A DNA stretch of 64,000 nt from the NCBI GenBank assembly GCA_050010675.1, contig JBEKKN010000004.1, positions 172-64,171 on the forward strand. Direction: 5' to 3'. The notes under the pieces were generated by a model that was given only the letters and a program-made list of their open reading frames with translations, was not told the origin of the DNA and did not search any database. The DNA is from Verrucomicrobiota bacterium (GTDB lineage Bacteria; Verrucomicrobiota; Verrucomicrobiia; Limisphaerales; UBA11358). Numbering within the stretch: position 1 is the stretch's first letter; each line of letters starts with the position of its first letter. This document shows positions 7,671 through 62,763 of this stretch, one piece after another. The translations under genes and the position numbers were made by a program.

Positions 7671-7687
7671 AAATTTTATGAATGGGT

Positions 7688-9703: not shown

Positions 9704-9715
9704 GGAAAAAGCGGG

Positions 9716-24364: not shown

Positions 24365-25042
24365 ATGCCCGAGAAAGCCGGTTCCAAACCCTCCGATGGT
24401 GAGCGGCTGTTTTTCCAGGCCGCCATCATCCTGTCTTTGGTTTTTGGGACCGGCTTCTGGTTGTTGATGTATTCATTGAACAAACAGGAAGACCGGCCGG
24501 GAGCGCCAGTCGACGAAGGGCCGCCACTCGCCATGGCGCCGGATCATCCGCGTCAACTGGTCGATTTTTCCCTCACCAATCAGACCGGTCACGCCGTCAC
24601 CCGCGCGGACCTGAACGGTAAATATCTCGTGGTGAGTTTCCTGTTCACCAGCTGCTCGCTGACCTGTCCCATTGTGAGCAGTCAGATGGGTGAAATCCAG
24701 CAACTCACCACCAACCAACCGGACGTCCGGCTGATATCACTGACGGTGGACCCGGACGACGACACGGTGCCGGTGCTGGCGAAATACGGAGAATACTTCA
24801 CCGCCGACACCAACCGCTGGTGGTTGCTGACCGGCGACGACGCCGTGATTCACAATCTGATCGGCACCAGTTTTCTCGCGATGGACACCAATAGTGCTTT
24901 CGGCTACATGCCGGGCAATTTTGCACATATCGAGCGCATCGCCCTGGTGGATCCCCAGGGCCGCGTGCGGGACTATTTCGACGGCTTGAACAACGACACA
25001 CCGAAGGCCGTGGTCAACGAAATCCATCAACTAAGGAAATAA
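24365..25042 (+). CDS. SCO1/SenC family copper chaperone / thiol-disulfide oxidoreductase
   Basis: There is a TM anchor. YLVVSFLFTSCSLTCP provides the CxxxC motif. ...SLTVDPDDDT... and ...HIERIALVDPQGRV... are also present. Confidence 0.8.
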   Translation: MPEKAGSKPSDGERLFFQAAIILSLVFGTGFWLLMYSLNKQEDRPGAPVDEGPPLAMAPDHPRQLVDFSLTNQTGHAVTRADLNGKYLVVSFLFTSCSLTCPIVSSQMGEIQQLTTNQPDVRLISLTVDPDDDTVPVLAKYGEYFTADTNRWWLLTGDDAVIHNLIGTSFLAMDTNSAFGYMPGNFAHIERIALVDPQGRVRDYFDGLNNDTPKAVVNEIHQLRK

Positions 25043-25047
25043 ACCTT

Positions 25048-25950
25048 GTGAAATCAGCAGTCACAAAACCTTTGCGTCTTTTTTGGGCGGTTTTGCCGTT
25101 GATTGCCGCCATCACCAACCCTGCCAGCGCCACGCCCAACACCGACGACCGGACGGTTCAATCCTATCCCGCACACGGCGTTGTCGAACAAATCGCGCCC
25201 GACCGGAGCCAGGTCACCGTCCATCATCAGGCCATTCCCGGCTACATGATGGAAATGACGATGGCTTTTCCCGTCAAAGACAGCAACGAACTGAGCAACG
25301 TCTCGGCGGGTGACAAGATCACCTTCACACTGGTGGTGGGCCGGACCAATGCCTGGGTGGAAGATATTCATCGCGTCGGACACAATGACACCATCCCGGC
25401 CAACTCCATGCCCATGACCAGCGGCATGTTTTCCATGCTTAAGCTCGGGGACATGCTGCCGGACGGCGAACTGGTGACCGAAGACCAACATCATATCCAC
25501 TTCTCCGACCTCCGCGGAAAGGCGGTGGCGTTCACGTTCTTTTTCACGCGCTGTCCGTTGCCCAATTATTGCCCGCTGATGAACCGGAATTTTGACCAGG
25601 TGCGGACCCTGCTGCTCTCGGAGACCAATGCCCCGTCCAACTGGCAGCTGCTTTCCATTTCCTTTGACCCGGACTTCGACACGCCCCAGATTTTATCGGA
25701 CTATGCCGTTGAGTTTCGCGGCACCAATTCCGCCCATTGGCTCTTTGCCGACGCCACCACCAACACGCTGGCCGGCCTGGCTCCGCGCCTCGGGTTGATG
25801 GTCATGCGCCAGGGAGACAACCTGTCACATAACCTTCGAACCGTGGTGCTCGACCCGCAGGGCCGGATTTACCGTCAATTCAACGGCAACCAATGGACGG
25901 CCCAACAGCTGGCCGATGCGTTGCTCGAGGCAGCGCGGCAAAAGGACTGA
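25048..25950 (+). CDS. fusion of a CusF-like periplasmic copper-binding domain and an SCO1/SenC-like domain
   Basis: The N-terminal part VTVHHQAIPGYMMEMTMAFPVKD...GDKITFTLV is a CusF-type His/Met motif. The C-terminal part AVAFTFFFTRCPLPNYCPLM...LLSISFDPDFDTP... is SCO-like. GTG start. Confidence 0.75.
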   Translation: MKSAVTKPLRLFWAVLPLIAAITNPASATPNTDDRTVQSYPAHGVVEQIAPDRSQVTVHHQAIPGYMMEMTMAFPVKDSNELSNVSAGDKITFTLVVGRTNAWVEDIHRVGHNDTIPANSMPMTSGMFSMLKLGDMLPDGELVTEDQHHIHFSDLRGKAVAFTFFFTRCPLPNYCPLMNRNFDQVRTLLLSETNAPSNWQLLSISFDPDFDTPQILSDYAVEFRGTNSAHWLFADATTNTLAGLAPRLGLMVMRQGDNLSHNLRTVVLDPQGRIYRQFNGNQWTAQQLADALLEAARQKD

Positions 25951-37960: not shown

Positions 37961-39337
37961 ATGACTTTGACGGAAAAAATCCTCGCCCGGGCGGCCGGCA
38001 AACCGCGCGTGCAGGCCGGCGACAACATCTGGGTGAACGCCGACGTGCTCATGACGCACGACGTTTGCGGGCCGGGCACCATCGGCGTGTTCAAACGCGA
38101 GTTCGGCAAGGACGCGAAGGTTTGGGACAAACGCCGGATTGTCATCATCCCCGACCACTATATTTTCACCGCCGATTCCAAATCGAACCGCAACGTGGAC
38201 ATCCTGCGCGATTTCGTGAAGGAGCAGGACATCGCGTATTTCTACGACGTGATTGATGACCCGAACGGCCACTGGCATTTCGACATGAGCAAGGGCCATC
38301 TCAAGCGGCAATACGGATCGCAGTACGCGGGTGTCTGCCACACGGCGTTGCCGCAAAAGGGGCACACCCGGCCCGGTGAGATTTTGTTCGGCACGGACTC
38401 GCATACCTGCATGGCGGGCGCGTTCAATCAGTTCGCCACCGGCATCGGCAATACGGACGCCGGTTTCGTCATGGGCACGGGCAAATTGCTCATCAAGGTT
38501 CCGGAAACGATGCATTTCCGGCTCGAAGGCAAGTTGCAGCCGGGCGTGATGGCCAAGGACGTGATCCTCCATTGTATCGGCGAAATCGGTTTTGACGGCG
38601 CGACGTATCGGGCGATGCAATTCGATGGCTCGGGCACCGCGTCCCTTTCGATTGACGACCGCATGACCATCGCGAACATGGCCATCGAGGCCGGCGGCAA
38701 GAACGGCATTTTTGAATTTGATTCGCGCACGCAGGAATACGTGGACGCGCGCGTGAAATTGAACGGCACCAAATCCACGTACGAACCGGTCGCGCGCGAC
38801 CAGGACCAGAAATTCGTTTATGAGCTGGTCGTGAATCTCGACCAGCTCGAACCGACGGTGGCGTGTCATCCCGATCCGGGCCAGCGCAAAAAGGCGAAGG
38901 AGATGGGGCACATCAAACTGGACCGCGCCTATGTCGGTTCCTGCACCGGCGGCAAGACGAGCGATTTTGTGGAGTTCGCGCGGGTATTGCGCGGCAAGCA
39001 TGTGGCCATTGACACGTTCGGCGTGCCGGCGACACCGGAGATTGTGCGCGATTTGCAGACGACGTATTGGGGCAAGCAGACCGTCTGGGACATTCTCGTG
39101 GGCGCCGGAGTGCAGATGACGGAGAACGCCGGATGCGCCGCGTGTCTCGGCGGGCCGGTGGACACGTTTGGCCGCATCAACAAGCCCGGCATCAACTGCA
39201 TCAGTGCAACGAACCGGAATTTTCCCGGCCGCATGGGCGACAAGGAATCGAAAGTGTTTCTGGCATCACCGATGACCGTGGCGGCGAGTGCGATTGCCGG
39301 CAAGATTGTGGATCCGCGCGAGTATCTGGGGAATTAG
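37961..39337 (+). CDS. leuC: aconitase-family dehydratase large subunit (3-isopropylmalate / homoaconitate dehydratase type)
   Basis: MTLTEKILARAAG..., ...VLMTHDVCGPG, ...GTDSHTCMAG, ...YVGSCTGGK and ...SATNRNFPGRMG are present, giving the three Fe-S cluster Cys contexts. No small-subunit gene is adjacent. Confidence 0.8.
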   Translation: MTLTEKILARAAGKPRVQAGDNIWVNADVLMTHDVCGPGTIGVFKREFGKDAKVWDKRRIVIIPDHYIFTADSKSNRNVDILRDFVKEQDIAYFYDVIDDPNGHWHFDMSKGHLKRQYGSQYAGVCHTALPQKGHTRPGEILFGTDSHTCMAGAFNQFATGIGNTDAGFVMGTGKLLIKVPETMHFRLEGKLQPGVMAKDVILHCIGEIGFDGATYRAMQFDGSGTASLSIDDRMTIANMAIEAGGKNGIFEFDSRTQEYVDARVKLNGTKSTYEPVARDQDQKFVYELVVNLDQLEPTVACHPDPGQRKKAKEMGHIKLDRAYVGSCTGGKTSDFVEFARVLRGKHVAIDTFGVPATPEIVRDLQTTYWGKQTVWDILVGAGVQMTENAGCAACLGGPVDTFGRINKPGINCISATNRNFPGRMGDKESKVFLASPMTVAASAIAGKIVDPREYLGN

Positions 39338-39355
39338 TGGTGGTGACTCCGCGTT

Positions 39356-40156
39356 TTACTGCCGGTTGAAGCCATCCAGCTCGGAAATAAAAGCGCCGGG
39401 CCCGCCTCCGCGATACCCCACCTGCCGGCCCAGCTCGTTGCCCGCGCTGTTTACCAGCACGAACGTCGGATAGCCGTCAACATTGTATTTCTTCGCGAGC
39501 GCCTGGTTGGCTTCCTTGAGCGCGTCATCCTGAGGTTTGCTACGTGGAAAATCCACCAGCACCAACTCCAGTTTGTTCCGGGCATAGGTGGCGAACTGGT
39601 CCGTGTCCAGCACTTCCTGGTCAAATCGGATGCACCACGGACACCAATCGGAACCCGTAAAGTGAAGCAATACCGTTTTATTATCGGCCCTGGCCTGCGC
39701 CAGGGTCTGGTTAAAATCGGTGCTCCAGGTCAAATCCGACGCATGGACGACGGCCGGTGGTCGGGTGCGGGTTTCGTCGGGCGGCCCGGTCGCGGCGGGA
39801 CCATAAATATCGGCCGGTTGATAATCCGTCGCGCGATAGGCGACGTTGGCCATGGCCTGTTTTTGTTCCAGTGTACTGGCGATGGCCGGGTTATAAAGGA
39901 AATGTTTTTGCAGGTCGGGACTGAGATTCTTCAACTTCGCGTTGGCCATGCCTTTCCCGCTGTTGTAGGTGAAATACACGTCGGTGGCGGACACGCTGAG
40001 CACGGTGACATTGCTGTAAATATCGGTGCCGGCTCGTAGCACCGGCAGTTGTTCGTCCGCCCGGACCGAGACCGCACCGAGCAAGCCGAGCGCGATAATC
40101 GTCGTTAAACGCAGGGTCATTCCGGCCTTTACAGCAACCTGTTTGCCAAGATTCAT
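39356..40156 (-). CDS. secreted thioredoxin-fold protein (WCPWC active site) with an N-terminal domain of unknown function
   Basis: The signal peptide is LTTIIALGLLGAVSVRA. ...VLLHFTGSDWCPWCIRFDQEVL... is present. It is the last gene in the same orientation as the cytochrome genes, after a 45-nt gap. Confidence 0.7.
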   Translation of the reverse strand: MNLGKQVAVKAGMTLRLTTIIALGLLGAVSVRADEQLPVLRAGTDIYSNVTVLSVSATDVYFTYNSGKGMANAKLKNLSPDLQKHFLYNPAIASTLEQKQAMANVAYRATDYQPADIYGPAATGPPDETRTRPPAVVHASDLTWSTDFNQTLAQARADNKTVLLHFTGSDWCPWCIRFDQEVLDTDQFATYARNKLELVLVDFPRSKPQDDALKEANQALAKKYNVDGYPTFVLVNSAGNELGRQVGYRGGGPGAFISELDGFNRQ

Positions 40157-40201
40157 GCGCGGAAAGCGCCTGCAAACGGGCAACCGCGCATCAATTGAAC
40201 G

Positions 40202-41962
40202 TCATTCCGTCTTATCGGCGGGTTCGGTTGAAGCTGATGGCGGCCGCGGTTGTTCCAGCGGATGCTCGTGTTTTTGCCATTCCGCGTAGACGCGGCCATC
40301 CCAACAGGCCGGGTTCAAGGGATAGACATCCGGATCAAAAATCACGTGATAGAAGTGCCAGACGACAATGGCCAGGCACGCCAGCAAGGCTTCGTAGTAG
40401 TGAATCGTCAATGCCACGTCCACGATCCAGCGCGGCAGGAAGGCCGTCACGTGCATCTTGAACCAGATCATCAAACCGGTGACGCCCATGATGAGGGTGC
40501 CCCACACCACGGCCCAGTATTCCAGCTTCTCCGCATAGCCAAACCGGCCGATTTTCGGTTTCTCCCGGCTCCCGCCGGTGAGATAACGCACGGCACACCA
40601 CATATCGGCGAGGTCTTTTTTGACCGGGAACAAATCCTTCACCAGGCGCCGGCCGTCCGGAGTCAGCAGCAGATAAATCAGATGATAAACGCCCACGAGC
40701 AACAGCACGATGCCGGCCAGACGATGCGTCCAGCGGCGGAACGACTCGTTCGCTCCGAGAAGTCTGGCCAGCCACGAATCCGGAAATTTCAGGGCGAAGC
40801 CGGTGAGGGCCAAAATGCTGAAACTGGACGCGAGCACGACGTGCTGCCAGCGTTGCGAAAGGCTCATACGCAAAACCGTCCGCGCGCCGGCGTGATATCG
40901 CGCAGCCGTTTTCCTCAAAAACAGCAGCGCGTTGTGAATGAACATCGCGCCCACGACAACAAAGATCAGCGTCAGATAAACCTGTCGCACCCACCCGTTG
41001 ATTTTTTCCGACAGGTCCCGTTGCCCGGACGTGGCGGCGGGGTCCACGTGGATTTTGCCGCTCACAAACATCCGGTTCGCACCGGGGTGACACTGACCGC
41101 AGGTGGCGATGAGGTGGTTCGTGTTGATCGTGGAGTCCGGATCAGAGGAAGGCAGAACTTTGTGGTAACCGTGGCAACTGGCGCAATCGGCGACCACGGT
41201 GGAACCGTAATGCGCGGCCAGGCCATGATAGCTTTCGCCGTACGTCTTCACCCGATCCGCCGGGAGATTGTATCGAGAATCCAAGGTCACCGAAGCATGG
41301 CACCGGCTGCACACGTCGGAAATCTTCAATGCCGAACCACCTTTCAACGCCTCAATTTTATGCTCGGCATGACAATCGGTGCAGGTCGGCGCATCACGAT
41401 TGCCTGCCGCCACTGCCTTGCCATGAACGCTTTTCACCCAGTCCGCAGCCTCCTGAACGTGACATTGTCCGCAGGTTTCCGCCTGCCGTGAAAAATACAG
41501 TGGCGAAACGGATGAATCGGGCGGAAGAATATCGTGCGAATCGTGGCAATCCAGGCAGGTGGCGGCGGTTTCATCGCCGGCCTTGACCCCCAAACCGTGA
41601 ACGCTGGCGCCGTAACTGGCGGTTTGCCGGGGATGGCAAATGGCGCAGTTGACCGGCGTCACGGGCCGGTTGTCGTCCGGATGCGTCGCCGTGATGTCGG
41701 TGTGGCAACTGACGCAGGTGTTCGTTCGATGGACCGACGCGGCGAGCCGGGTCTGGTCCACGAACAGCGACAGCGGCCGGCCGGCCGCGTTGGTGGTGGT
41801 CAGGGTGTTGTCGGCGTGACAAACCAGACAATCATCATTCGCCATCACCGGTGCGGCCGCGGCTCCGGCGGCGAGGACCAGCCAGAACCCGGTCAAAGCC
41901 ATTATCAGCATTCGTTGGCCATTGCCCATATTATCAATATCAGACGGTGTGACCCTTGCCAC
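40202..41962 (-). CDS. nine-haem c-type cytochrome fused to a 4-helix b-type cytochrome (HydC/FdnI-like): CbcL-like
   Basis: There are 9 CxxCH motifs: CLVCH, CVSCH, CAICH, CLDCH, CGQCH, CTDCH, CSRCH, CASCH and CGQCH. The C-terminal part has TM helices with conserved His (RWQHVVL.., WTHRLAGIVLLLVGVYHLIY.., ..LTIHYYEALL..WHFYHVIF). Confidence 0.85.
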   Translation of the reverse strand: MARVTPSDIDNMGNGQRMLIMALTGFWLVLAAGAAAAPVMANDDCLVCHADNTLTTTNAAGRPLSLFVDQTRLAASVHRTNTCVSCHTDITATHPDDNRPVTPVNCAICHPRQTASYGASVHGLGVKAGDETAATCLDCHDSHDILPPDSSVSPLYFSRQAETCGQCHVQEAADWVKSVHGKAVAAGNRDAPTCTDCHAEHKIEALKGGSALKISDVCSRCHASVTLDSRYNLPADRVKTYGESYHGLAAHYGSTVVADCASCHGYHKVLPSSDPDSTINTNHLIATCGQCHPGANRMFVSGKIHVDPAATSGQRDLSEKINGWVRQVYLTLIFVVVGAMFIHNALLFLRKTAARYHAGARTVLRMSLSQRWQHVVLASSFSILALTGFALKFPDSWLARLLGANESFRRWTHRLAGIVLLLVGVYHLIYLLLTPDGRRLVKDLFPVKKDLADMWCAVRYLTGGSREKPKIGRFGYAEKLEYWAVVWGTLIMGVTGLMIWFKMHVTAFLPRWIVDVALTIHYYEALLACLAIVVWHFYHVIFDPDVYPLNPACWDGRVYAEWQKHEHPLEQPRPPSASTEPADKTE

Positions 41963-42026
41963 TTTACGCGGCTTGCCATTTGTTGCGCCTTTTTTGACGA
42001 TGCCGGCAGCGGAGTTTCCGGCCGCC

Positions 42027-44249
42027 TCAATGCGTCAGGCGCGTGGCCATGGCGTAGATGATCAGAATCAGCAGGAAGAGGCCGAGGCCGAAGAAAAAGT
42101 AGCCGAAGGATCGCGCGATGTTCTTCCAACGCTCCCATTCGTCCTTGACGCGGTGCTCGTCCAGTTTGCCTTCCGCCACCAACCGGTCGTACCAGCGCTT
42201 GCGCTCGTGCAGCATCTCGGCCTTGGAGACGCGGCCGGAGAAGATGACCGTGTCCATTGGAAATTTCTCGATGCGGAAATGCGTGTTGAAGAAATGAATC
42301 GAGAAAATGAAGCCCGCCGCCAGCAACGCTTCGTCCGAGTGGAGGATCAGGGCCACATTGATGATCCAGCCCGGCAGGAACCGCGTGAAAAACTCGGGGA
42401 ACCACATGATCAAGCCGGAGGCGCCAATGATGGCCACACCCCAGAACACGGCGAAGTAATCGAATTTCTCCCAATACGTCCAGCGGTCGAACTCGGGTTT
42501 GGGGCCCCGGCCGAAGAACCACTTATTGTGCGCCACCAAATCGCGCCAGTCCTGAAACGTGGGCACCATGGAATCGGGGCCGAACAGGGCTTTCCAGAGC
42601 CGGCTGAATTGGAACCGGCCGCTGGCCGGGTCGCGCAATGATTTCCGTCCCTGCCAGGCCTTGCCCGCCAGCGCCGTAAGATGCAGGCCAAAATAGAAAA
42701 AGGTGACGATGGCACCGAGCCGATGCAAGGTCCGGGCAGTTTCCGGGCCACCGAGGACGTGGAAAATAACTTTGGCCCAGTCCGTGTAGTAAAACTTGAG
42801 CGGCATGCCGGTAATCACCAGCAGCAGGAAACTGGTCACGACCAAGAAATGCAGGAAGCGCTCAAACGGCGAGAAGCGTGTGAACCATTCACCGTCCACC
42901 TGGGTTTGAATCTTGGCTTCGCGGAATTTCCTGGTGTCGTGCAGATAGAGGTAGATCGCGCGCACCAGCCAACCGAGGGTGTGCAGGCCAAAGAAGGCGA
43001 ACGTGCCGATGAGCAAACCGGTCATGCCCAGAAAAACCGCGTGGAGCAACGGGTAATTTTTCCCGTCCAGCGGGTTGGCATGGGGTTGGTATTCGGTGAA
43101 TTTGATGGTGGCGCCGGGATGACATTGCCGGCAGGTGGCCAGGATGTTGGTGGGCGACAGGTGCGACCGCGGGTCAGACGGTGGCTGCACGTCATGATAA
43201 CCGTGGCAGTCGTAACAGGCCGCCACCATCGGCGCCACGTTGGGCCGGCCCAACGCCACCGCCTTGCCGTGGTAGGTGTCCCGGTAATGGGCCAGCCGAT
43301 CGGCGTGACACCGGCCGCAACGTTCGTCGCTGACGGCTTTGAAATTATTACCCTCCGGGTTCACGATGTCATGCGCGGTGTGACAATCCGTGCAGACCGG
43401 CCCGCGCGGGTCGCCTTTGGCCAGTAATTGTCCGTGGATGCTCTGGTCGTAAATTTTTTCGACGCCGACGTGACATTTGCCGCAGGTTTTGGCGACGTTG
43501 GCGTGGTTGATCGGTGAATCGCGGTCCACCGCGCGCTTGATGTCATGCACGCCGTGGCAATCGTCACACGACGGCGCGACAATCAGACCCATTTTGAGCA
43601 GCGCGCGGCCGTGGATACTTTCCATGTATTGCGCGGCCGCCTCCGGATGATTGATTTCATATTCCTTGGTCAGTCCCGGATTACTGTGGCATTTCGCGCA
43701 GGTGAAGGGCTGGTTCAATTTGAACACCGGCGAGGTTGGGTCATTGACCGGCAGAATGTCGTGCGAGCCGTGGCAATCCCAGCAATTGGCCGCCCCCGAC
43801 GCGCCGAGCAGATGGCTCACGCCGTGAATGCTCGTGGCGTAATCCGCAGCCTCCTTCGCATGGCAAGTGTTGCAATGGGGAGGTCCCAGCGGGTCGTGGA
43901 CGAGGTCCTTGATGCCCGTGTGGCAATCCACGCAGGCGAGGTGCGCGTGAACCGATTTTTGAAAGGCATTGGTCGGAAAAACCAGCGATTCGGTTTTACC
44001 GTTGACCACGCGCGTGGTGTTGGGATCGAGATGGCAGGCCAGACAATCACTGTTGGCAAACTTTTCCGGCGCGTTGGTGGAGACCGTCCCCTGGGCACAC
44101 GCGACGGCACCCGCAAATAAAAACCAAACCGGCAGACAAACCCATGCCGTCACGGCGGTCCGGAACCGGCTCATGATGGCGCCGGGGCGGGCAACCGGCT
44201 TTAAGTGATAGTGGTTGAGTGTCATGGCCGTTGTTTCATTTGCCGCCAT
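42027..44249 (-). CDS. eleven-haem c-type cytochrome fused to a b-type cytochrome membrane domain: CbcL-like paralogue
   Basis: There are 11 CxxCH motifs: CLACH, CVDCH, CNTCH, CWDCH, CAKCH, CDDCH, CGKCH, CTDCH, CGRCH, CYDCH and CRQCH. The C-terminal helices carry His (FLHFLVV, TLHRLGA..GLHLT, ILHSDEALL..SIHFFNTHF), and there is an extra terminal TM helix. Confidence 0.85.
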   Translation of the reverse strand: MAANETTAMTLNHYHLKPVARPGAIMSRFRTAVTAWVCLPVWFLFAGAVACAQGTVSTNAPEKFANSDCLACHLDPNTTRVVNGKTESLVFPTNAFQKSVHAHLACVDCHTGIKDLVHDPLGPPHCNTCHAKEAADYATSIHGVSHLLGASGAANCWDCHGSHDILPVNDPTSPVFKLNQPFTCAKCHSNPGLTKEYEINHPEAAAQYMESIHGRALLKMGLIVAPSCDDCHGVHDIKRAVDRDSPINHANVAKTCGKCHVGVEKIYDQSIHGQLLAKGDPRGPVCTDCHTAHDIVNPEGNNFKAVSDERCGRCHADRLAHYRDTYHGKAVALGRPNVAPMVAACYDCHGYHDVQPPSDPRSHLSPTNILATCRQCHPGATIKFTEYQPHANPLDGKNYPLLHAVFLGMTGLLIGTFAFFGLHTLGWLVRAIYLYLHDTRKFREAKIQTQVDGEWFTRFSPFERFLHFLVVTSFLLLVITGMPLKFYYTDWAKVIFHVLGGPETARTLHRLGAIVTFFYFGLHLTALAGKAWQGRKSLRDPASGRFQFSRLWKALFGPDSMVPTFQDWRDLVAHNKWFFGRGPKPEFDRWTYWEKFDYFAVFWGVAIIGASGLIMWFPEFFTRFLPGWIINVALILHSDEALLAAGFIFSIHFFNTHFRIEKFPMDTVIFSGRVSKAEMLHERKRWYDRLVAEGKLDEHRVKDEWERWKNIARSFGYFFFGLGLFLLILIIYAMATRLTH

Positions 44250-44341
44250 CGGGTATTTCCATGCCGCTCCGGTCGAAACACCATTCGTTCGCGGGCTACA
44301 TCCATCTGCCGCGTGGCGTAAACCGCGTTATTCCGATGGCG

Positions 44342-44671
44342 TTATTTCTTAAAAGTCCGCAGGTAGGCCACCAGACCTTTAATTTCGTCGTCCGATAAAT
44401 TTTGGGCCGGCCTCATCACGGTCTTGCCGTCTTTATCCTTGAACCCTTCCTTGATGGCCTTGAAGGCGGCATCATCCGTCAGCGCGGCCTGAACCGCCGC
44501 ATCGCTGTAGTCCTTGGCGCCCAGTTTCCGGCCCATATTGGTCTGGCCCGTGCCATCCGCGCCGTGGCAGCGGGTGCACGAAGTGCCCCAGGTTTCCTTG
44601 GGTTCAGCGGCTGAAACCGCCAGCGTGGCGGCGAAACCGATGATGCTGGCGAGCAGAATTGTTTTATTCAT
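44342..44671 (-). CDS. periplasmic monohaem class I cytochrome c
   Basis: There is a signal peptide, one CTRCH motif, and a distal Met context ...GKTVMRPAQ.... Confidence 0.8.
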   Translation of the reverse strand: MNKTILLASIIGFAATLAVSAAEPKETWGTSCTRCHGADGTGQTNMGRKLGAKDYSDAAVQAALTDDAAFKAIKEGFKDKDGKTVMRPAQNLSDDEIKGLVAYLRTFKK

Positions 44672-44940
44672 CGTCGTGGCTCCATTTTATTGGTTTGTTG
44701 GGGCGCGACCGTTCGCACCCATTTCAAAGAATAACGTCGGTGAAGCGGCTGGAATCGACTACCCGTGTTTTGGCCAACGCCGCGCATTTCTTGCGTCGCG
44801 AATAGCAATATATCTTATATGAAATAAATAAAGAATCAGGCTAAATACTGAAAGAGAGCGCCAGACGAAACCCCGCACCGCCTGATGGCCGCATTGTGCA
44901 GGTGAATAGTTACCCTCGGGAGCAGCCGGCCGGTTTCCGC

Positions 44941-46242
44941 TTATTTCGGCAGGTTTGCGCCGGGCAGATAGATGGCGAAGGTGGTGCCTTGACCGGGCTG
45001 GGTATGGACGTGCAAGGCGCCATTGCCTTCCTTGATCAGGCGCTGAACGATGCTAAGACCAAGCCCCGTGCCCTGACGCGGCCCTTTGGTGGTGAAGTAA
45101 GGTTGGAAGATTTTCGGCAGCAATTCCGGCGGGATTCCCGGGCCGTCATCACGCACCCATAATTTGACCATGGGCGGGGTGTTGTCCGCGCATTCAACAT
45201 TGAGCAGCCGGTCGTTCGGCGTGTCCTTGAACTTGGAAAGATCCAGCGGCGCCCGCAGCATTTCGCCGCCGACCTCCACACGATGCTTCTGAGGCACGCA
45301 TTGAAAGGCATTCACCGCCAGGTTGAGCAGAATCTGGATCAGGTCGGTGCCGTTGACCTTGATGCTCATGTCCTCCGCCAGCGGCGTGATGCTGAATTCG
45401 TTGTCCTGCACGCTGGGATGCACACGCATGAGTTGCTCGAGGTCCTTGAGCAGTTGGTTGACACTGACCCGCGGAGCATGTTCATCCGACTGGCGGCGTA
45501 GAAACCCGAGGTAGCGCCGGGAAATTTCTATGCAATTGCCCACCTGCCGCGAGATGATGCGCAGGCGGTCCTTGATGAATTCCGAATCCTCTGCTTCCAG
45601 GTGCGCCGTCCGGCCGAGCCGCTGGTTAAGGACCTGCACAAAACCGGAAATGACCGTCAAGGGACCGTTGATGTCATGAATAATGCTGGCATAAATATCG
45701 CCGCGTGTCTTGGCGATCTGCTCTTCGATGCGCTGGTTTTGCAATTCGGTCAGCAACTCCTGGACCTTGTCCGCGCTGCTGTGAATCTCGCCTTCGAGGA
45801 TCCGGCGTTGCATGGCCTGCGAGACGGCGGTGCGAATGGTCGCGATGTCGAACGGCTTGTTGATGTAGTCGCACGCGCGCAGGCGCAATGCCTGCCGGAT
45901 GGTGTCCGTGGTCTCAAAGGCGGTGATCATGATCGCCTCGATTTCCGGGTTCACAAATTTAAGGCGTTCCAAGGCTTCGATGCCCGACATGCCGGCCATG
46001 CGGATGTCCATCACCGCCACGTCCACCGGGTGTTTTTGCGCCAGCTCAATCGCCGTTGGGCCGTCCTCGGCCATCAACAAATCGTAGTCATCCTTGAAAA
46101 TGACCCGCAACGACTGACGCGGCCCGTCCTCGTCGTCCACTATCAACAACAGACCGCGACGCTTCGTGGGCGTCGGTTCGGTGACTTCGGCGATGGCCGT
46201 GTCCGCCTCTGCCAATGGATCAGCGGTCGAGATCATATTCAA
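44941..46242 (-). CDS. hybrid signalling protein: N-terminal receiver domain plus HisKA/HATPase histidine kinase
   Basis: The receiver region reads LLLIVDDEDGPRQ...DVAVMDIRMAGMSG...ITAF. The H-box is SIIHDINGPLTVISGF. The ATPase G-boxes are RDDGPGIP...GTGLGLSIV. Confidence 0.85.
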   Translation of the reverse strand: MNMISTADPLAEADTAIAEVTEPTPTKRRGLLLIVDDEDGPRQSLRVIFKDDYDLLMAEDGPTAIELAQKHPVDVAVMDIRMAGMSGIEALERLKFVNPEIEAIMITAFETTDTIRQALRLRACDYINKPFDIATIRTAVSQAMQRRILEGEIHSSADKVQELLTELQNQRIEEQIAKTRGDIYASIIHDINGPLTVISGFVQVLNQRLGRTAHLEAEDSEFIKDRLRIISRQVGNCIEISRRYLGFLRRQSDEHAPRVSVNQLLKDLEQLMRVHPSVQDNEFSITPLAEDMSIKVNGTDLIQILLNLAVNAFQCVPQKHRVEVGGEMLRAPLDLSKFKDTPNDRLLNVECADNTPPMVKLWVRDDGPGIPPELLPKIFQPYFTTKGPRQGTGLGLSIVQRLIKEGNGALHVHTQPGQGTTFAIYLPGANLPK

Positions 46243-46334
46243 AATTTAGTTGCCCGGTTCAATTCCCTGAACACGTCTAATAACGTCATTTATACCGCAA
46301 TCGCTCCCACCCTCAAGCGCAAAACGTGCCAGAT

Positions 46335-46865
46335 TTACAGGTGCGCCAGCAACAGCGCGAGCGCCTGCCGCACCGTAACTTGCTTGAATCGCGCGCGTTG
46401 ATACGCATTCAATTTGCGTTCAACCGTCGTTCCGAACGAACCGGCCAACGCGATGAAAACCGTTCCGACCGGCTTTTGCTTTGTCCCCCCGGCCGGCCCG
46501 GCGATGCCGGTGATCCCCAGCGCGAAATCTGCGCCGAACTTTTTCCGGGCGCCCTCGGCCATTTCACGCGCGACGGCGTCGCTCACCGCGCCGTGCACCG
46601 CAAGGGTTTTGGCCCGGACGCCCAGAAACTTCCGCTTCACGGCATTGCTGTAGGCGACCACGCCCCCCAGGAATACCGCCGATGCGCCCGGCACATTCGT
46701 GAGCCGATGCGCCACGCACCCGCCGGTGCACGATTCCGCCAAGGCGAGTGTTTGTTTTCGCTTCGCGAGCCGCCGGAGAACCACTGATGCCAGTGCGAGG
46801 CCCATCCCGACCTTGAGCTTCCTTCCGGCAAAGGCTCCAGGCACGACCGGGCGGCGGCGTTTCAT
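46335..46865 (-). CDS. pncC: CinA C-terminal domain protein (nicotinamide-nucleotide amidohydrolase PncC-like)
   Basis: ...[11 protein letters not shown]..., ...[10 protein letters not shown]..., ...[26 protein letters not shown]... are present. The start is at 46865 (ATGA overlap with the upstream gene) or 46805. Confidence 0.75.
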
Positions 46866-54657: not shown

Positions 54658-56727
54658 TCAACGCAGCAGCCGGCGCAGTTCCTCCGGCTGGTCTGTTGGC
54701 GGCTGACACGCAACGCCGGTGCAAAGATAGGCCACCGCGCCGCTTTTGGCGGGCAAAGTCCGCGCGAATTCCCCGACGGCGCCCCGGTTCCCCAGAACAA
54801 CCTTTTTCGGCTGATAGACCGAATGCGCGGCGCGCAGCAATTCACGGGTTCCGGCATCCGCCGGATCGCCGGCAATCACGACCTGCCGTGGCTCCTCCAA
54901 CCAAAAATCCACCGCTTGTAACAGGAACGGCATGGCTTGCGGGAAATTCTGCAAGCGGTGCGCGAATAATCGCAATGTCGCTTCCGCCGGCCGCCGCAAA
55001 TCATCGCGGCCGGTGATGGCGGCGAGCTTCAACAAGGCCAGCGTGGCGACGGAATTGCCGGACGGCTCAGCGCCGTCGTAATCGTCCTTCACGCGCAGAA
55101 TCAAATCCTTGGCCTCGGCGGCACCCTGCCAGAAACCGCCATCGGCCGCGTCGTAAAATTTTAAAATCATCGCTTCGGCGAGCGCGACGGCAAAATCAAG
55201 CGGCCTCGGATCCAGCGTGGCTTCATAAAGGTCAACCACCCCGGCCAGCATGAACGCGTAGCCTTCGAGCAATTGCACGTGATCGTGCGCGCCGTCGCGC
55301 CAGCGATGAAACAACGTCCGGTTTTTTTCGTCCCACAATTTTTCCTGGAGAAACGCCAGATTTTTCTCCGCCGCCGCCCGATATTTCGTTTCGCCGAGCA
55401 CGACATAGGCGTGGGCCATGGCGCCCAGCATCAAACCGTTCCAGGAAGCGAGGATTTTATCATCGAGATGCGGGCGGATGCGCCGGCGGCGCACCGCCCG
55501 CATCTTTGCTTGGGCGGAAACGAACCGGGGTTTTTCAGCGTCAGTCAGATTGGCATCCACCAGGCTCAGCACATTTTGGCCCGGCAACGGGCGCGGATGG
55601 CTGTGGTCAACGAAATTTCCATTTTCAGTGATGCCAAAAACGCGGACCACCACATTGAGTTCCTCGGCGGTCAACAGCGCGGAGAGTTCATCTTTCGACC
55701 AGCAGTAAAATTTTCCCTCATGGCCTTCGCTGTCGGCGTCCTCGGCGGAGTAGAAGCCGCCATCGGGATGGGTCAGGTCCCGCAAAACGTAGTCGAGAAT
55801 GTCGCGCGCACCGTCGGCGAATGGGGTTTCGGGTCGGGCCTCGGGCGTCTGGGCTGTGGAAACCAGATGCGCGTCGAGATAGAGCTGCGCGAGTTGGGCG
55901 TTGTCATAAAGCATCTTTTCGAAATGCGGCACCAGCCATTCGGCATCCACCGCATAACGGGCGAACCCGCCGCCCAGTTGATCGTGAATGCCGCCGGCCG
56001 CCATGCGCTCGCACGTGTACAAAACCATCCGCGCGGCCTCGTCGTCGCCAAAGCGGCTGGCGCAACGCAGCAACAGCAGCGGAACACTGGGTTGCGGAAA
56101 CTTCGGGGCACCGCCGAACCCGCCGTGACGCGGGTCGTAGGCCGACTTGAAAACGGTTGCGGCGTGGCGCAATGCGTCCGCCGTCAGCAGGAGATTTGAC
56201 GGCGCCGAGCCGGCCGTCGCCGCCGCCAACCGCGCTTGAATTTCGTTGGCCGAGCTCGTGAGTTCATCCCGGTGTTCCTGCCAAAGCCCGGCGATTTGGT
56301 GAAGCAATTGCAAAAACCCCGGCCGACCCTGACGATGGTCCGGCGGGAAATAGGTGCCGCCGAAGAACGGTTTCAATTCCGGCGTCAGAAAGAGGTTGAG
56401 CGGCCAGCCGCCGCCGCCGGTCGTGGCCTGGACAAAGGTCATGTAAATTTTATCCACGTCCGGACGTTCCTCGCGGTCCACCTTGATATTGACGAAACGA
56501 TCGTTGAGAAAGCCGGCAATCTTTTCGCTCTCGAACGACTCGCGTTCCATGACATGGCACCAATGGCAGGTGGAGTAGCCGATGCTCAGAAAAATCGGCT
56601 TGTTTTCCGCGCGCGCCCGGGCAAAGGCCTCGTCGCCCCAGGCGAACCAGTCCACCGGGTTGCGGGCGTGCTGGAGCAGATAGGGCGATTTCTCGCGGAC
56701 CAGACGGTTGGTGCGCTCGACGACCAT
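54658..56727 (-). CDS. thioredoxin-domain (DUF255) plus (alpha/alpha)6-barrel protein, YyaL/SPATA20-like
   Basis: [52 protein letters not shown] is the hallmark N-terminus of this family. Confidence 0.85.
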
Positions 56728-59707: not shown

Positions 59708-59766
59708 GTATTTTCACTGACAACAGGCAATTGGCCTCATTCCAAAAATTAAGCGTTAATCGATTT

Positions 59767-60231
59767 ATGGTGACGAGCAATAAGAAGACCGCCCGGTCGA
59801 AGGCAGGCGCGGCATTTACCCTGGTGGAAGTGACGATGGCCCTCGGCATATTGGTATTGGCGATGTCGGGAATGATTTACGGCTACACACAAACCAACTA
59901 TCAGGCGGAATGGAGTTCGATGTCGCTGGCCGTTCAGGCGTTGACCGTTCAATCCATCGAACAGGCCCGGGCTGCAAAATGGGATATTTATTCGACCGCG
60001 TCGGGATCAAATCCCGATGAACTTCCACCGGGAACAACCAATATCATCTATACCAACGCGGTTCTGATTCCCTCCAGCGGCCAAACCATGAGTGTCACCA
60101 ATATACTGAAAATCACCACCATCACGACGATTCCTGCGGTCCGCCAGATACGTTCGGACTGTGCGTGGTATTTTCCACGCACCGGAATATGGTTCACCAA
60201 CACCGTAATCACTTATCGCGGGGGAAACTAA
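59767..60231 (+). CDS. prepilin-type N-terminal cleavage/methylation domain protein (pseudopilin)
   Basis: ...KAGAAFTLVEVTMALGILVLAMSG matches the class III signal peptide and hydrophobic helix. Confidence 0.7.
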   Translation: MVTSNKKTARSKAGAAFTLVEVTMALGILVLAMSGMIYGYTQTNYQAEWSSMSLAVQALTVQSIEQARAAKWDIYSTASGSNPDELPPGTTNIIYTNAVLIPSSGQTMSVTNILKITTITTIPAVRQIRSDCAWYFPRTGIWFTNTVITYRGGN

Positions 60232-60833
60232 TGAAACTACTGTCAAACAGCTGGTCACGGAAAGCATCGGTCTGGGCCATGAACCTCCGGGCTTTCACCC
60301 TGGTGGAGTTGATGATCACCATGGCTATTTTTATGATGCTGGTGCTGGCGATGGTCGGGGTGCAAATTTTCGGTTTCAAAATAAACTCGCTTACGACCAG
60401 CAAGTTGATCTCCACCGCCTATAGCCTCAAGGCCCTGGATCAGATTCAAAGCCAGGTCCGCGGCGCAAGCTCGGCAGTGGTCGGAACCGGAACCAGTCTG
60501 GCGTCGTTCACCGCCACCAGCACCACCGGTCCGGCGCTGATGATCTTTTCTCCCACCGGCGGAAGCAACCTTCTGTATCTCTCCACCAATACGGGCGGCC
60601 TCTATGAGATTTTCAGCGCTAACAACCAGCAAATGACCGTGGCCTCCAATCTCACCAATCAGGTGTTGTTCCAGACGGTGGATTGCCATGGCAACAATAT
60701 TTCATCCAGCGGCCTTGAGCATTACGCCATCCGGATGACCCTGCAATTTTATAAAGTGGACTATCAGGTTCCCACTAATGTTTCCTCGTACTACACCTTC
60801 CAGACGGAGATGACTCCCCGCAGCCAGGACTAA
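60231..60833 (+). CDS. prepilin-type N-terminal cleavage/methylation domain protein (pseudopilin)
   Basis: ...LRAFTLVELMITMAIFMMLVLAMVG is present. The start is at 60231 (TAATG overlap) or 60279 (MNLRAFTLVEL). Confidence 0.7.
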   Translation: MKLLSNSWSRKASVWAMNLRAFTLVELMITMAIFMMLVLAMVGVQIFGFKINSLTTSKLISTAYSLKALDQIQSQVRGASSAVVGTGTSLASFTATSTTGPALMIFSPTGGSNLLYLSTNTGGLYEIFSANNQQMTVASNLTNQVLFQTVDCHGNNISSSGLEHYAIRMTLQFYKVDYQVPTNVSSYYTFQTEMTPRSQD

Positions 60834-60867
60834 AGCCACACCATTTAACCAAATCCCGGAGACCGCC

Positions 60868-62763
60868 ATGAAAATTGCACGTAACATTTACCAACCATGC
60901 GTCCGAGGCTATGCCTTGTTGATGACCATGATCTTCATCAGTGTTGCGCTATTGTTGCTGGTCAGTGTGATGAACTGGACCAACAGCAGCGCCCGGCAGA
61001 CGGAACGGAATAATTTGTTCGGTTTGGGCACGGGCGCCGCCGAAGCCGCGACCGAAAGCGTTATCGCCCAAATGACGTTTGATTTTTTTAACCAGAATTT
61101 CGCGAACGGGAGCAATTATTACACGACCAACAGCATCAACCTGCTTCCGGTAACAACGGGTTGGCCGGTTCAATTCACCTTCACCAATCCTTCGAACAGC
61201 AGCCCGGTCTATGTGAGCGTCAACCCCATTAACTGGACCACGAACTGGGGATCCCTGTTTGCCGCCAATTATACGGGAATGCACGCCGATATCGCCAATT
61301 GTACCGTGATTTCCACCGCCACCGCCCTCAATCAACCGTATACCAACGTTTCAGCGACAGTCCAGCAAACGTTTGAATTGGCCGCCATTCCCATCTTCCA
61401 ATATGCCATTTTTTATGACCTGAACATGGAGATTGATCCCGGCGCCTCCATGACCGTCACCGGCCCGGTCTACTCCAATGGCGGTATTTGGTCCGGGTCA
61501 ACCGTTTTGACATTCAATTCCCCGGTCAGCGCGGCGGGAAACATCTATAACACCAATTCGGATCCTTTTGCATCGAGTTACACCGGCAGCGGTCCCTCCC
61601 AATATCTTACAGCCTCGAACATCAGCCAGGACACCTTGGCCTTGCCCATCGGCCAGACGAATGACCCCACAGCCATCCGGGCGCTGCTGAACCTGCCCCC
61701 CGCCGGCACAGCTCCGTATTCGAGCACCGGCCAGTTGTATTTTATCAACCAAACCGACTTGATCGTTTCCAATTCACCTGGGGGCACCCTTTCCGCCTAT
61801 CTTCAGGATTCGAATAATGTCACGCCACTCCAGTACATCACTCCCGACGTGACGCAATCCATCACCAACCTGACTTATAGTTACGCCACCAATGTCTCCC
61901 ATCCGGTCACGACAAATTGGAACGCTGGTCACACTAAAATAACCGGTTATACCACCAATACGTTCACCTCTATAACCACCAACACCACGGCCACCATTTC
62001 GGTGACCAACTTTTACTCTTTTGCAACCAACATCTCGTTTTACGATTATCGCGAGGGAAAAACCGTGGCCGCCGTCCAGCTGAATGTGGGGGCATTGACC
62101 AATTGGCTGGTCAGCCCGAATGGCAGCACGCTAAACAGTCAGGTGTACACTGACACCGGACATTATATTGATTCCGTCTATGTCTATAATAATGCCCCAT
62201 CCAGCAGCTCCAGTCTTCCCGCCGTACGCATGGCCAATGGCTCCGTCCTTCCGGATCAAGGGCTGACCGTGGTCACACCCGATCCACTCTATGTGTTGGG
62301 TAATTACAATGCCAACGGCTCGTCGCTGGGCACCACCAACACGTCCAACACCCAGCCGGCCGCCCTGTTCGGCGATTCCATTACCGCCCTTTCCACCAGC
62401 TGGAGCGACAACTGGAACTCGAGCACTGCCTTGAGTTCGCGCAATCCTGGCGCCACCACCATCAACGCCGCGGCATTTGAAGGCATCGTCCCAACCGTTG
62501 GCGCCAATTACAGCGGCGGTGTAGAAAATTTCATTCGTCTGCTGGAAAACTGGAGCAGTTCCACGGCTCTGACCTATAACGGGTCCATTGTTGTCATGTT
62601 TCCCAGCCAATACGCCACGAATAGATGGCAGCAAACCGGCGTTTATTACAATGCGCCCAAGCGTAATTGGGCCTTTGACCTTAATTTCCAAAGTAATAAC
62701 GGACTGCCACCGCTCACCCCCAGAGTCACCAAGATATTCCGTCAAACGTGGAGCGTATATTGA
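60868..62763 (+). CDS. large pilus/pseudopilus-associated protein with a PilX-like N-terminal anchor
   Basis: The N-terminal hydrophobic segment is RGYALLMTMIFISVALLLLVSVMNW. The body is Thr/Asn/Ser-rich. It is the third gene of the pseudopilin operon. Confidence 0.5.
   Translation: MKIARNIYQPCVRGYALLMTMIFISVALLLLVSVMNWTNSSARQTERNNLFGLGTGAAEAATESVIAQMTFDFFNQNFANGSNYYTTNSINLLPVTTGWPVQFTFTNPSNSSPVYVSVNPINWTTNWGSLFAANYTGMHADIANCTVISTATALNQPYTNVSATVQQTFELAAIPIFQYAIFYDLNMEIDPGASMTVTGPVYSNGGIWSGSTVLTFNSPVSAAGNIYNTNSDPFASSYTGSGPSQYLTASNISQDTLALPIGQTNDPTAIRALLNLPPAGTAPYSSTGQLYFINQTDLIVSNSPGGTLSAYLQDSNNVTPLQYITPDVTQSITNLTYSYATNVSHPVTTNWNAGHTKITGYTTNTFTSITTNTTATISVTNFYSFATNISFYDYREGKTVAAVQLNVGALTNWLVSPNGSTLNSQVYTDTGHYIDSVYVYNNAPSSSSSLPAVRMANGSVLPDQGLTVVTPDPLYVLGNYNANGSSLGTTNTSNTQPAALFGDSITALSTSWSDNWNSSTALSSRNPGATTINAAAFEGIVPTVGANYSGGVENFIRLLENWSSSTALTYNGSIVVMFPSQYATNRWQQTGVYYNAPKRNWAFDLNFQSNNGLPPLTPRVTKIFRQTWSVY

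Follow-up and report, generated by a model that had tools for sequence, protein, structure and literature searches.

Paired multihaem c/dihaem b cytochrome fusions of the CbcL/MtrH/MtoC family in a Verrucomicrobiota gene cluster

The cytochrome cluster and its fusion proteins

Our analysis concerns a 64-kb stretch of contig JBEKKN010000004.1 from a member of the Verrucomicrobiota (hereafter the window) and, within it, a cluster of genes at 39356-46242, all on the minus strand, in which two adjacent genes each encode a multihaem cytochrome c domain fused to a dihaem cytochrome b domain. The first gene of the cluster (44342..44671) encodes a secreted monohaem class I cytochrome c of 109 amino acids (aa), recognized by the Pfam models Cytochrom_C (44.8 bits) and Cytochrome_CBB3 (40 bits). 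It is followed by an 11-haem c/dihaem b fusion of 740 aa (42027..44249), which we refer to as type B and assigned from its CxxCH count, transmembrane segments, and Pfam and NCBIfam matches, and by a 9-haem fusion of 586 aa as listed (40202..41962), referred to as type A and assigned from its CxxCH count, PF01292, TIGR01583, AlphaFold, and Foldseek. The last gene (39356..40183) encodes a secreted DsbH-like thioredoxin-fold protein with a WCPWC active site, matched by Thioredoxin_2 and Thioredoxin_7 in Pfam. Upstream and co-oriented lies a gene for a soluble hybrid receiver-histidine kinase of REC-HisKA-HATPase layout (44941..46242; Pfam REC 86.8 bits, HATPase_c 73.2 bits), the end of which is separated from the cytochrome c gene by a 269-nt intergenic region (44672..44940, read on the same strand) that is presumed to be the promoter or regulatory region of the cytochrome operon. 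The coordinates and strand of all five open reading frames (ORFs) are those given in an initial annotation of the window, and orthologue lengths suggest that three of the true starts likely lie inside the listed ORFs, at ATG 41929 for the 9-haem gene (575 aa), ATG 40120 for the thioredoxin gene (254 aa), and ATG 46236 for the kinase gene (431 aa).

Motif counts place 11 CxxCH motifs at aa 69-377 of the 740-aa protein, nine at aa 45-292 of the 586-aa protein, and one in the 109-aa protein, with no CxxCK or longer-spaced haem motif variants in any of the three; the chance expectation from amino-acid frequencies is far below one CxxCH per protein. The multihaem domains, taken from the first Cys to the last His, correspond to 43119..44045 in the 740-aa protein and 41087..41830 in the 586-aa protein, and both fusions carry Pfam signatures of the cytochrome c3, c7, and paired-CxxCH kinds. 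All of the CxxCH motifs are invariant across 60 homologues in an alignment that spans both paralogue families. Eight additional histidines of the 586-aa c-domain (H78, H122, H143, H180, H201, H246, H267, and H305) are also invariant in these 60 sequences, which makes them candidate distal haem ligands, and the c-type haems of both fusions are probably bis-His ligated. The spacing between successive haem motifs is 37,20,30,28,44,28,30,25,34,28 in the 740-aa protein and 38,23,30,28,30,24,42,28 in the 586-aa protein, and the former contains a two-haem insertion (CAKCH, CDDCH) relative to its 9-haem paralogue. Foldseek found no match in the PDB for the multihaem domain of the 586-aa model, as is expected for haem-free models of cytochromes with little secondary structure. 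At the sequence level, aa 43-199 of the 586-aa protein (window 41366-41836) can be aligned with a soluble cytochrome c of solved structure (28pb_A, E 1e-10). This entry is a recent 278-aa deposit titled 'Cytochrome c', which shares the N-terminal haem-module pattern, has no b domain, and could be used as a template for the fold of the c-domain. We considered whether it might be the periplasmic domain of a CbcL protein and rejected the idea, as its 139-aa aligned fragment retrieved three soluble c3-type relatives at ≤63% identity, labeled Nitrospirota and Desulfuromonadaceae, none of which has a b domain.

Beyond the haem domains, hydropathy (together with an AlphaFold2 model for the 586-aa protein) indicates five hydrophobic helices in the 586-aa protein and six in the 740-aa protein. 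The 740-aa protein is arranged as a signal or anchor helix (aa 31-56), a periplasmic c-domain, a linker transmembrane helix, a four-helix bundle like that of FdnI, and an extra C-terminal transmembrane helix (aa 710-740), while the 586-aa protein consists of a signal peptide, the c-domain, a linker transmembrane helix (aa 317-355), and the FdnI-like four-helix bundle, without the sixth transmembrane helix. The FdnI/HydC-like dihaem cytochrome b domain covers aa ~458-660 of the 740-aa protein (42270..42878), as judged from PF01292, TIGR01583, and the paralogue alignment, and aa 361-569 of the 586-aa protein (40256..40882), as judged from sequence alignment to 1kqf_C, residue invariance, and fold match. 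PF01292 (Ni_hydr_CYTB) scores 55.4 bits with the 586-aa protein, above its cut-off of 30.1, and 27.3 bits with the 740-aa protein, slightly under it. The top NCBIfam matches of both proteins are FdnI models, all at scores below the cut-offs (66.7 bits for the 586-aa and 42.5 bits for the 740-aa protein vs 115.85 for TIGR01583; 52.9 and 21 bits vs 339 for NF007558). By BLAST the two proteins are 32% identical (E 2e-77), and their membrane domains align over the whole length.

When phmmer was run against the PDB, aa 361-569 of the 586-aa protein aligned to E. coli FdnI (1kqf_C, E 4.7e-11), with H374, H413, H521, and H536 falling on the haem-ligand histidines of FdnI, which, from Jormakka et al. 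2002, we take to be H18, H57, H155, and H169. The same columns are occupied by H467, H509, H637, and H652 of the 740-aa protein, both by BLAST and in a ten-sequence alignment, and these are its putative b-haem ligands. All four columns contain His in every one of the 60 sequences from both paralogue families, and thus the b-haem ligands have been kept in the membrane domain. The AlphaFold2 model of the 586-aa protein (predicted local distance difference test 71.5) places four long helices bearing the ligand histidines after the linker helix at 317-355, and its sole significant Foldseek match in the PDB is again FdnI (1kqf_C; E 9.5e-5, target TM-score 0.69, probability 1.0), followed in rank by the cytochrome b of hydrogenase-1; the PDB contains no solved fusion of the CbcL type. 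FdnI, the gamma subunit of E. coli formate dehydrogenase-N (PDB 1KQF chain C), therefore has the four-helix dihaem b fold and all four ligand histidines in common with the window proteins, but it is a stand-alone 217-aa subunit fed by FdnGH, whereas the window proteins have a fused multihaem c domain joined via an extra linker transmembrane helix. Motif, profile, alignment, and fold evidence all agree with the initial annotation that both proteins are CbcL-type fusions of a multihaem cytochrome c with a HydC/FdnI-like dihaem cytochrome b. A fifth membrane histidine, H427 of the 586-aa protein (codon at window 40682-40684), is invariant in 60/60 sequences of both paralogue families; it lies in bundle helix 2, within the cytoplasmic half, has no FdnI counterpart, and may belong to a quinone site.

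The 109-aa cytochrome has its haem motif at aa 32-36 (CTRCH) and scores 44.8 bits with PF00034, against a cut-off of 21.3, which places it in class I. C32, C35, H36, and M86 are invariant in 25/25 co-located homologues, and because Met86 is among them, we read the protein as likely His/Met ligated with Met86 as the sixth ligand. Its closest solved relative is the Kuenenia cytochrome c-552 Ks_3358 (5mxy, E 3.6e-9).

Family relationships, distribution, and gene neighbourhoods

Our per-protein homology search was limited in its number of candidates, and the resulting totals of at least 7,972 homologues for the 740-aa protein and at least 7,359 for the 586-aa protein are lower bounds. The top 120 matches of each fusion are full length, are 67-99% identical (74-97% for the 740-aa protein), and contain both the c and the b Pfam signatures. 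An exhaustive search covering 1.84 billion cluster representatives (clustering at 50% identity) yielded 1,040 matching clusters at E≤1e-30, rising to 6,224 at E≤1e-3, with the best 150 representatives mostly 450-1,005 aa in length, and a scan of one genome per species located a relative in at least 589 species-representative genomes. Full-length fusions that recur this widely, across thousands of proteins and no fewer than 589 species, exclude an assembly or frameshift artefact; the c and b parts genuinely reside on one polypeptide. The best 80 species genomes are all metagenome-assembled and derive from Verrucomicrobiota (Limisphaerales, Akkermansiaceae, and Opitutaceae), several classes of Acidobacteriota, Ignavibacteria, Bacteroidota, Binatia, and Eisenbacteria, and this homologue taxonomy bears out the verrucomicrobial lineage initially proposed for the host, which is a soil or peat Verrucomicrobium. 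Three metagenome-assembled records titled 'Bifidobacteriaceae' or 'Bifidobacterium' (L011, L014, and L016) also contain cytochrome loci of the Verrucomicrobia type, with a fusion 63-65% identical to that of the window; these bins have probably been misassigned taxonomically.

Haem spacing divides the fusions into subfamilies, with 9 haems in type A (Verrucomicrobiota and Holophagaceae), 11 in type A' (Acidobacteriota), 13 in type A'' (Ignavibacteria), and 11 in type B (Verrucomicrobiota), all of which are assembled from recurring two-haem units. The two window fusions are ancient paralogues that are neighbours across the Verrucomicrobiota. The idea of a duplicated module, as first put forward, is not supported in so far as it suggests a recent tandem copy, given the 32% identity, the unlike numbers of haems and transmembrane helices, and the membership of two separate, widely conserved subfamilies.

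Fusions of this architecture have been surveyed by Zhong & Shi 2018 (PMC6295460), who reported 138 CbcL/MtrH/MtoC homologues from 15 phyla, retrieved by BLAST with GSU0274, Daro_1404, and Rfer_4073 as templates. These homologues contain 3-23 haem motifs, mostly six transmembrane helices, and conserved b-haem histidines, with five or four transmembrane helices in a few members (the five-helix variation is reported for four), and their hosts include Fe(III) reducers as well as Fe(II) oxidisers (PMC6295460). A multihaem N-terminal domain, a PF01292-type b domain on the same polypeptide, the b-haem histidines, and a transmembrane helix number within the family's range are all found in both window fusions. 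It had been supposed that such modules were not described in the Planctomycetes-Verrucomicrobia-Chlamydiae group, which is incorrect, as the same survey lists four from Verrucomicrobia, including Oter_2603 of Opitutus terrae (PMC6295460). Oter_2603 (O. terrae PB90-1, 729 aa) is from the same phylum and has haem spacings of 37,21,30,28,44,28,30,25,34,28, near-identical to those of the 740-aa protein, and its six transmembrane positions match those of the 740-aa protein at a constant offset of 12-13 residues; a cultured verrucomicrobium was thus on record with the 11-haem type. Two further verrucomicrobial 11-haem homologues, PAW67162 and OQB93798, are likewise already classed as CbcL/MtrH/MtoC by Zhong & Shi 2018. 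In that survey the verrucomicrobial 11-haem proteins are catalogued only, with function, partner, and pairing with a 9-haem protein absent from it (PMC6295460).

Among characterized proteins, CbcL of Geobacter sulfurreducens (GSU0274, 619 aa) shares with the window fusions an N-terminal multihaem c domain followed by a HydC/FdnI-like dihaem b domain. Its nine CxxCH motifs equal the count of the 586-aa protein, whereas the 740-aa protein has 11, and of its spacings (23,25,23,24,29,28,43,28) the last two, next to the membrane domain (43, 28), approximate the 42, 28 of the 586-aa protein while the first six differ. Conversely, its six transmembrane segments are shared by the 740-aa protein, and the 586-aa protein lacks the C-terminal sixth. 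The bis-His ligation of CbcL likely applies to the 586-aa protein as well. CbcL is a single gene that is not adjacent to imcH, unlike the two paired paralogues of the window, and function has been tested for CbcL only. In the haem-spacing comparison, no protein with the CbcL pattern was found among the 150 best representatives, which indicates a remote sequence similarity. MtoC and MtrH (Dechloromonas, Gallionella, and Rhodoferax) have the same fusion architecture with nine haems and six transmembrane helices, but their haem spacing (40,25,51,31,31,25,30,28) differs from that of the window fusions, and their genes sit in mtrAB/mtoAB porin-cytochrome clusters (PMC6295460), of which the window has none. 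Two other menaquinol:periplasmic cytochrome oxidoreductases of Geobacter, ImcH and CbcBA (Cbc5), are also lacking in the window; CbcBA is a split version of the fusion, composed of the 7-haem CbcA and the dihaem b protein CbcB (bioRxiv 10.1101/2023.05.03.539133).

To survey gene neighbourhoods, ORFs were called and clustered in 84 loci, 67 of which lie outside the syntenic clade of the window; the neighbour counts below refer to these 67 loci and to genes within 3 kb of a full-length fusion (6 kb for NrfC/NrfD). Close relatives (~70-97% identity) keep the order kinase, cytochrome c, 11-haem, 9-haem, thioredoxin, along with the housekeeping neighbours argH, cinA, leuC, and dus. Synteny in these relatives therefore says little about function, because the housekeeping neighbours are conserved as well. 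Outside this clade, the most frequent neighbour was a 7-haem membrane cytochrome of the NapC/NirT type (24/67), followed by another cytochrome with ≥4 haems (20/67), a second fusion (19/67), a monohaem cytochrome c (14/67), and NrfC- or NrfD-like subunits (7/67). The 109-aa cytochrome itself belongs to a neighbour cluster present in 22 of the 84 loci. The haem spacing of the 7-haem neighbours is (25), 49, 106-115, 108-117, 20-22, 31-43, with CX3CH at the first site, and we treat these proteins as ImcH homologues because, that first site excepted, the spacing matches that of Geobacter ImcH (GSU3259; 24, 49, 106, 117, 20, 38). In the window clade the ImcH gene has dropped out of the cluster. The recurrent annotated neighbours of the orthologues are ImcH-like, Cbc4-like, and MtrC-domain cytochromes, and no nitrite or hydroxylamine reductase or formate dehydrogenase catalytic subunit was recognized among the recurrent neighbour clusters of the 84 loci, unclustered neighbours not having been scanned individually. 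Membership in a nitrite, hydroxylamine, or formate pathway was rejected on this basis and on scores below the FdnI cut-offs; as far as the recurrent neighbours show, the orthologues are not embedded in the nitrite or hydroxylamine reductase operons that would have made the module ordinary.

The 11- and 9-haem genes are adjacent even where they are divergent, as in Akkermansiaceae and Opitutaceae, or swapped in order, and we argue for a functional link between the paralogues because their adjacency survives these changes. Many relatives have the 9-haem type alone, with no pair, and in two Opitutaceae-type loci (L079 and L080) the neighbouring fusion is a divergently oriented 13-haem protein. 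Six verrucomicrobial loci (L009, L021, L027, L028, L031, and L069; e.g. L027:75-11740) contain a 4-haem cytochrome with NrfC-like iron-sulphur and NrfD-like proteins, a set resembling Cbc4/CbcSTU, and then a monohaem cytochrome c, an ImcH homologue, and the 11- and 9-haem fusions, often with hemA and MtrC-domain cytochromes downstream, so that several Geobacter-type inner-membrane quinol oxidoreductase modules stand in a single cluster. In six acidobacterial loci (L047, L053, L054, L055, L063, and L081; e.g. L053:252-13398), a fusion and ImcH are accompanied by a ~780-aa secreted protein without Pfam match, which is possibly an outer-membrane barrel, as well as by a b-less 10-haem cytochrome, Rieske and cytochrome b genes, and a 9-haem c7-type cytochrome, and these loci look like a complete envelope-spanning electron conduit. 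A hemA gene (glutamyl-tRNA reductase, by sequence resemblance only) lies directly downstream of the 9-haem fusion in L009, L017, L021, L023, L028, L029, and L035, and HemN-like and Crp/Fnr-like genes recur near fusions in other loci. Through these neighbours the cluster is tied to haem synthesis and probably to anaerobic regulation.

The thioredoxin-fold protein and the kinase, both present as initially described, did not prove to be conserved parts of the module and are ruled out as such beyond the immediate clade. The thioredoxin-fold protein has a signal sequence and a DWCPWC motif, scores 126.9 bits with the DsbH model NF043050 (below the equivalog cut-off of 190), and has a DsbH-type protein as its best solved relative (2ju5_A, E 7e-25). 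Its gene is confined to the closest loci (L001-L003, L005, and L022), having moved to the opposite end of the cluster in L002, and it occurs in 0/67 loci outside the syntenic clade. The kinase, which has no transmembrane or sensor domain, is adjacent in 8/9 loci of the syntenic clade and lies within 3 kb in only 1/67 others. Both are thus lineage-specific additions; the thioredoxin plausibly keeps periplasmic thiols, such as those of apocytochrome CxxCH motifs, reduced, and the kinase plausibly regulates the cytochrome operon. The window also encodes a second member of this thioredoxin-like family, a 689-aa DUF255 protein (54658-56727, minus strand; Thioredox_DsbH, 259 bits), whose single CxxCH is probably due to chance.

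Direction of electron flow and competing interpretations

By analogy with characterized relatives, we favor with moderate confidence an interpretation in which the pair of paralogous inner-membrane cytochromes, members of the CbcL/MtrH/MtoC family encoded alongside a small cytochrome c with His/Met ligation, would act as exporters of electrons from menaquinol to the periplasm. The predicted helices are consistent with a topology in which the c-domain is periplasmic, the linker helix crosses back to the cytoplasm, and the bundle starts there; the bundle is predicted to hold two b haems, one near each membrane face, as in FdnI and HydC. Following FdnI and Geobacter CbcL, menaquinol would be oxidised near the cytoplasm-side b haem, and electrons would cross the membrane via the two b haems into a wire of 9 or 11 c haems, from which they would leave to periplasmic carriers, the co-encoded monohaem cytochrome c being the most obvious candidate. 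With proton release on the cytoplasmic face, this step would draw on the membrane potential rather than contribute to it, which would suit low-potential acceptors. Such quinol oxidation on the N side, driven by membrane potential, has been proposed for CbcL and CbcBA (bioRxiv 10.1101/2023.05.03.539133), and the nine bis-His haems of the CbcL domain have an apparent potential of -194 mV and donate electrons to PpcA (PMC9129911). The window does not encode the final acceptor, and the gene context of relatives points to an extracellular or periplasmic one, with Fe(III) and humic quinones as examples. The paralogues probably differ in the partners or in the range of potential that they serve, or else act as one complex. 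Cultured Limisphaera, in which Fe(III) respiration was first shown in 2026, have menaquinone-7 only and encode inner-membrane multihaem cytochromes (PMC13608581); the 'two inner membrane MHCs' (multihaem cytochromes) of that paper are possible counterparts of the window pair.

Several points weigh against electron export as we have described it. Membership in the CbcL/MtrH/MtoC family is well supported by architecture and by the match to Oter_2603, but homology to CbcL itself is indirect, and the roles ascribed to both window subfamilies derive from sequence and analogy. The AlphaFold2 model of the 586-aa protein is haem-free and of moderate confidence. The 64-kb scan found no ImcH, porin-cytochrome, or extracellular cytochrome, so that an extracellular end point is drawn from the relatives. 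The partner cytochrome, as a His/Met class I protein, is of a kind that is usually high-potential and more typical of aerobic chains, and two adjacent SCO1/SenC genes at 24365-25950, the second fused to a CusF-like copper-binding domain, suggest haem-copper oxidases and an organism that is at least facultatively aerobic. [quoted passage not shown]

This last point bears directly upon the possibility that electrons flow the other way. The fusions would then be quinone reductases, a role of the kind proposed for MtoC in Fe(II) oxidisers. Electrons from periplasmic or extracellular donors, such as reduced humics or Fe(II), would enter through the monohaem cytochrome c, pass along the haem wire, and reduce menaquinone near the cytoplasm, generating membrane potential as in formate dehydrogenase-N, in which the FdnI fold found here is established to run in this direction. 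MtoD is a monohaem cytochrome c, and a monohaem cytochrome c is the conserved first gene of the present cluster. Clustering of mtoC with mtoD is a feature of Fe(II) oxidisers, and the occurrence of family members in organisms of both metabolisms, with nothing to distinguish them, also counts in favor of this reading (PMC6295460). Nevertheless, we regard reverse flow as unlikely. The potential of a His/Met cytochrome c normally lies far above that of menaquinone, which would make electron flow to the quinone uphill, the ImcH homologues that are co-located in relatives are known only from Fe(III) reducers (PMC6295460), and the related cultured Limisphaera are Fe(III)-reducing heterotrophs (PMC13608581). 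Cyc2 or MtoAB homologues were also not noticed beside the genes in the loci examined, although no specific search was made for them.

Also improbable, in our estimation, is a single heteromeric quinol:cytochrome c oxidoreductase assembled from both fusions and the His/Met cytochrome c, which would replace complex III as a housekeeping enzyme, pass electrons to haem-copper oxidases or to other reductases of the periplasm, and have no role in extracellular electron transfer. This would account for the adjacency of the 11- and 9-haem genes across Verrucomicrobiota despite changes of orientation and order, for the invariant Met86 of a class I carrier typical of oxidase donors, for the SCO1/SenC copper chaperones in the window, and for the high conservation of the top 120 matches, and in the window clade the cluster does sit amid housekeeping genes with no extracellular-transfer genes nearby. 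As noted above, however, housekeeping synteny in close relatives is little informative on function. Furthermore, bis-His multihaem domains of the family titrate near -200 mV (PMC9129911), which would be an odd route to a high-potential carrier, Limisphaerales already possess alternative complex III, and many relatives have the 9-haem type alone, or a cluster with ImcH, MtrC-domain cytochromes, and large secreted proteins, unannotated and paired with 10-haem cytochromes. We give almost no credence to the fusions serving a formate dehydrogenase or hydrogenase as its membrane-anchoring 'gamma subunit', as Joint Genome Institute source names such as 'formate dehydrogenase gamma subunit' and the best NCBIfam and PDB matches to FdnI would have it, since the scores are far under the FdnI equivalog cut-off, nothing like the catalytic subunit of either enzyme was recognized beside the cluster in the window or among the recurrent neighbours of relatives, and the fused multihaem domain replaces the FdnH-type partner; the formate dehydrogenase annotation was rejected on this gene context and these sub-cut-off scores.

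Significance and other features of the window

Verrucomicrobiota (Limisphaerales and Pedosphaerales) and Acidobacteriota are among the most abundant bacteria of soil, peat, and humic lakes, and their anoxic respiration is poorly known. In bog Verrucomicrobia, porin-cytochrome clusters have been reported without an identified inner-membrane component (PMC5615132), and the conserved CbcL-type pair, with ImcH and Cbc4-like neighbours in relatives, is a reasonable candidate for this component and could mark such metabolism in metagenomes. A more speculative proposal, which we consider doubtful, is that the trio of His/Met cytochrome c, 11-haem fusion, and 9-haem fusion makes up a single heteromeric respiratory complex, found widely among the Verrucomicrobiota of soil and peat and with relatives among the Acidobacteriota. 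If so, it could be the missing inner-membrane entry to porin-cytochrome systems, which would make these phyla important respirers of humic substances and Fe(III), or it could be a third kind of quinol:cytochrome c oxidoreductase beside bc1 and alternative complex III; the combination of ImcH, a Cbc4-like set, and two CbcL-like modules in some Limisphaerales would then amount to a compact Geobacter-type toolkit outside Desulfuromonadia. The protein family, its presence in the phylum, and its variable haem number are already published, and the gain is therefore incremental, the system not being of a new kind. The additions to what is known are modest: the conserved 11-haem/9-haem paralogue pair with its His/Met cytochrome c, the map of gene contexts, the loss of the ImcH gene from the cluster, and the clade-specific additions of the thioredoxin and the kinase.

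A greedy six-frame ORF scan detected no further multihaem ORF of ≥90 aa in the 64 kb, and nothing similar to a porin-cytochrome or terminal reductase was seen there, with family-library scans covering part of the window ORFs; to that extent the initial remark that neither is adjacent to the cluster holds. The genes that flank the cluster are housekeeping or regulatory. Within the 269-nt gap between the kinase and cytochrome c genes, for which a promoter role is inferred, there is no listed ORF of ≥80 aa, no consensus sigma-70 promoter, and no enrichment of terminators over the shuffled expectation, and Rfam gave no matches across 39000-46600; both the promoter and terminator result and the Rfam result are uninformative. 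Elsewhere in the window, translations judged by eye indicate a kdpCBA potassium-transport operon-like set of genes at 7080-11515 on the minus strand and a run of genes with pseudopilin-like N-termini at 59731-62763 on the plus strand.

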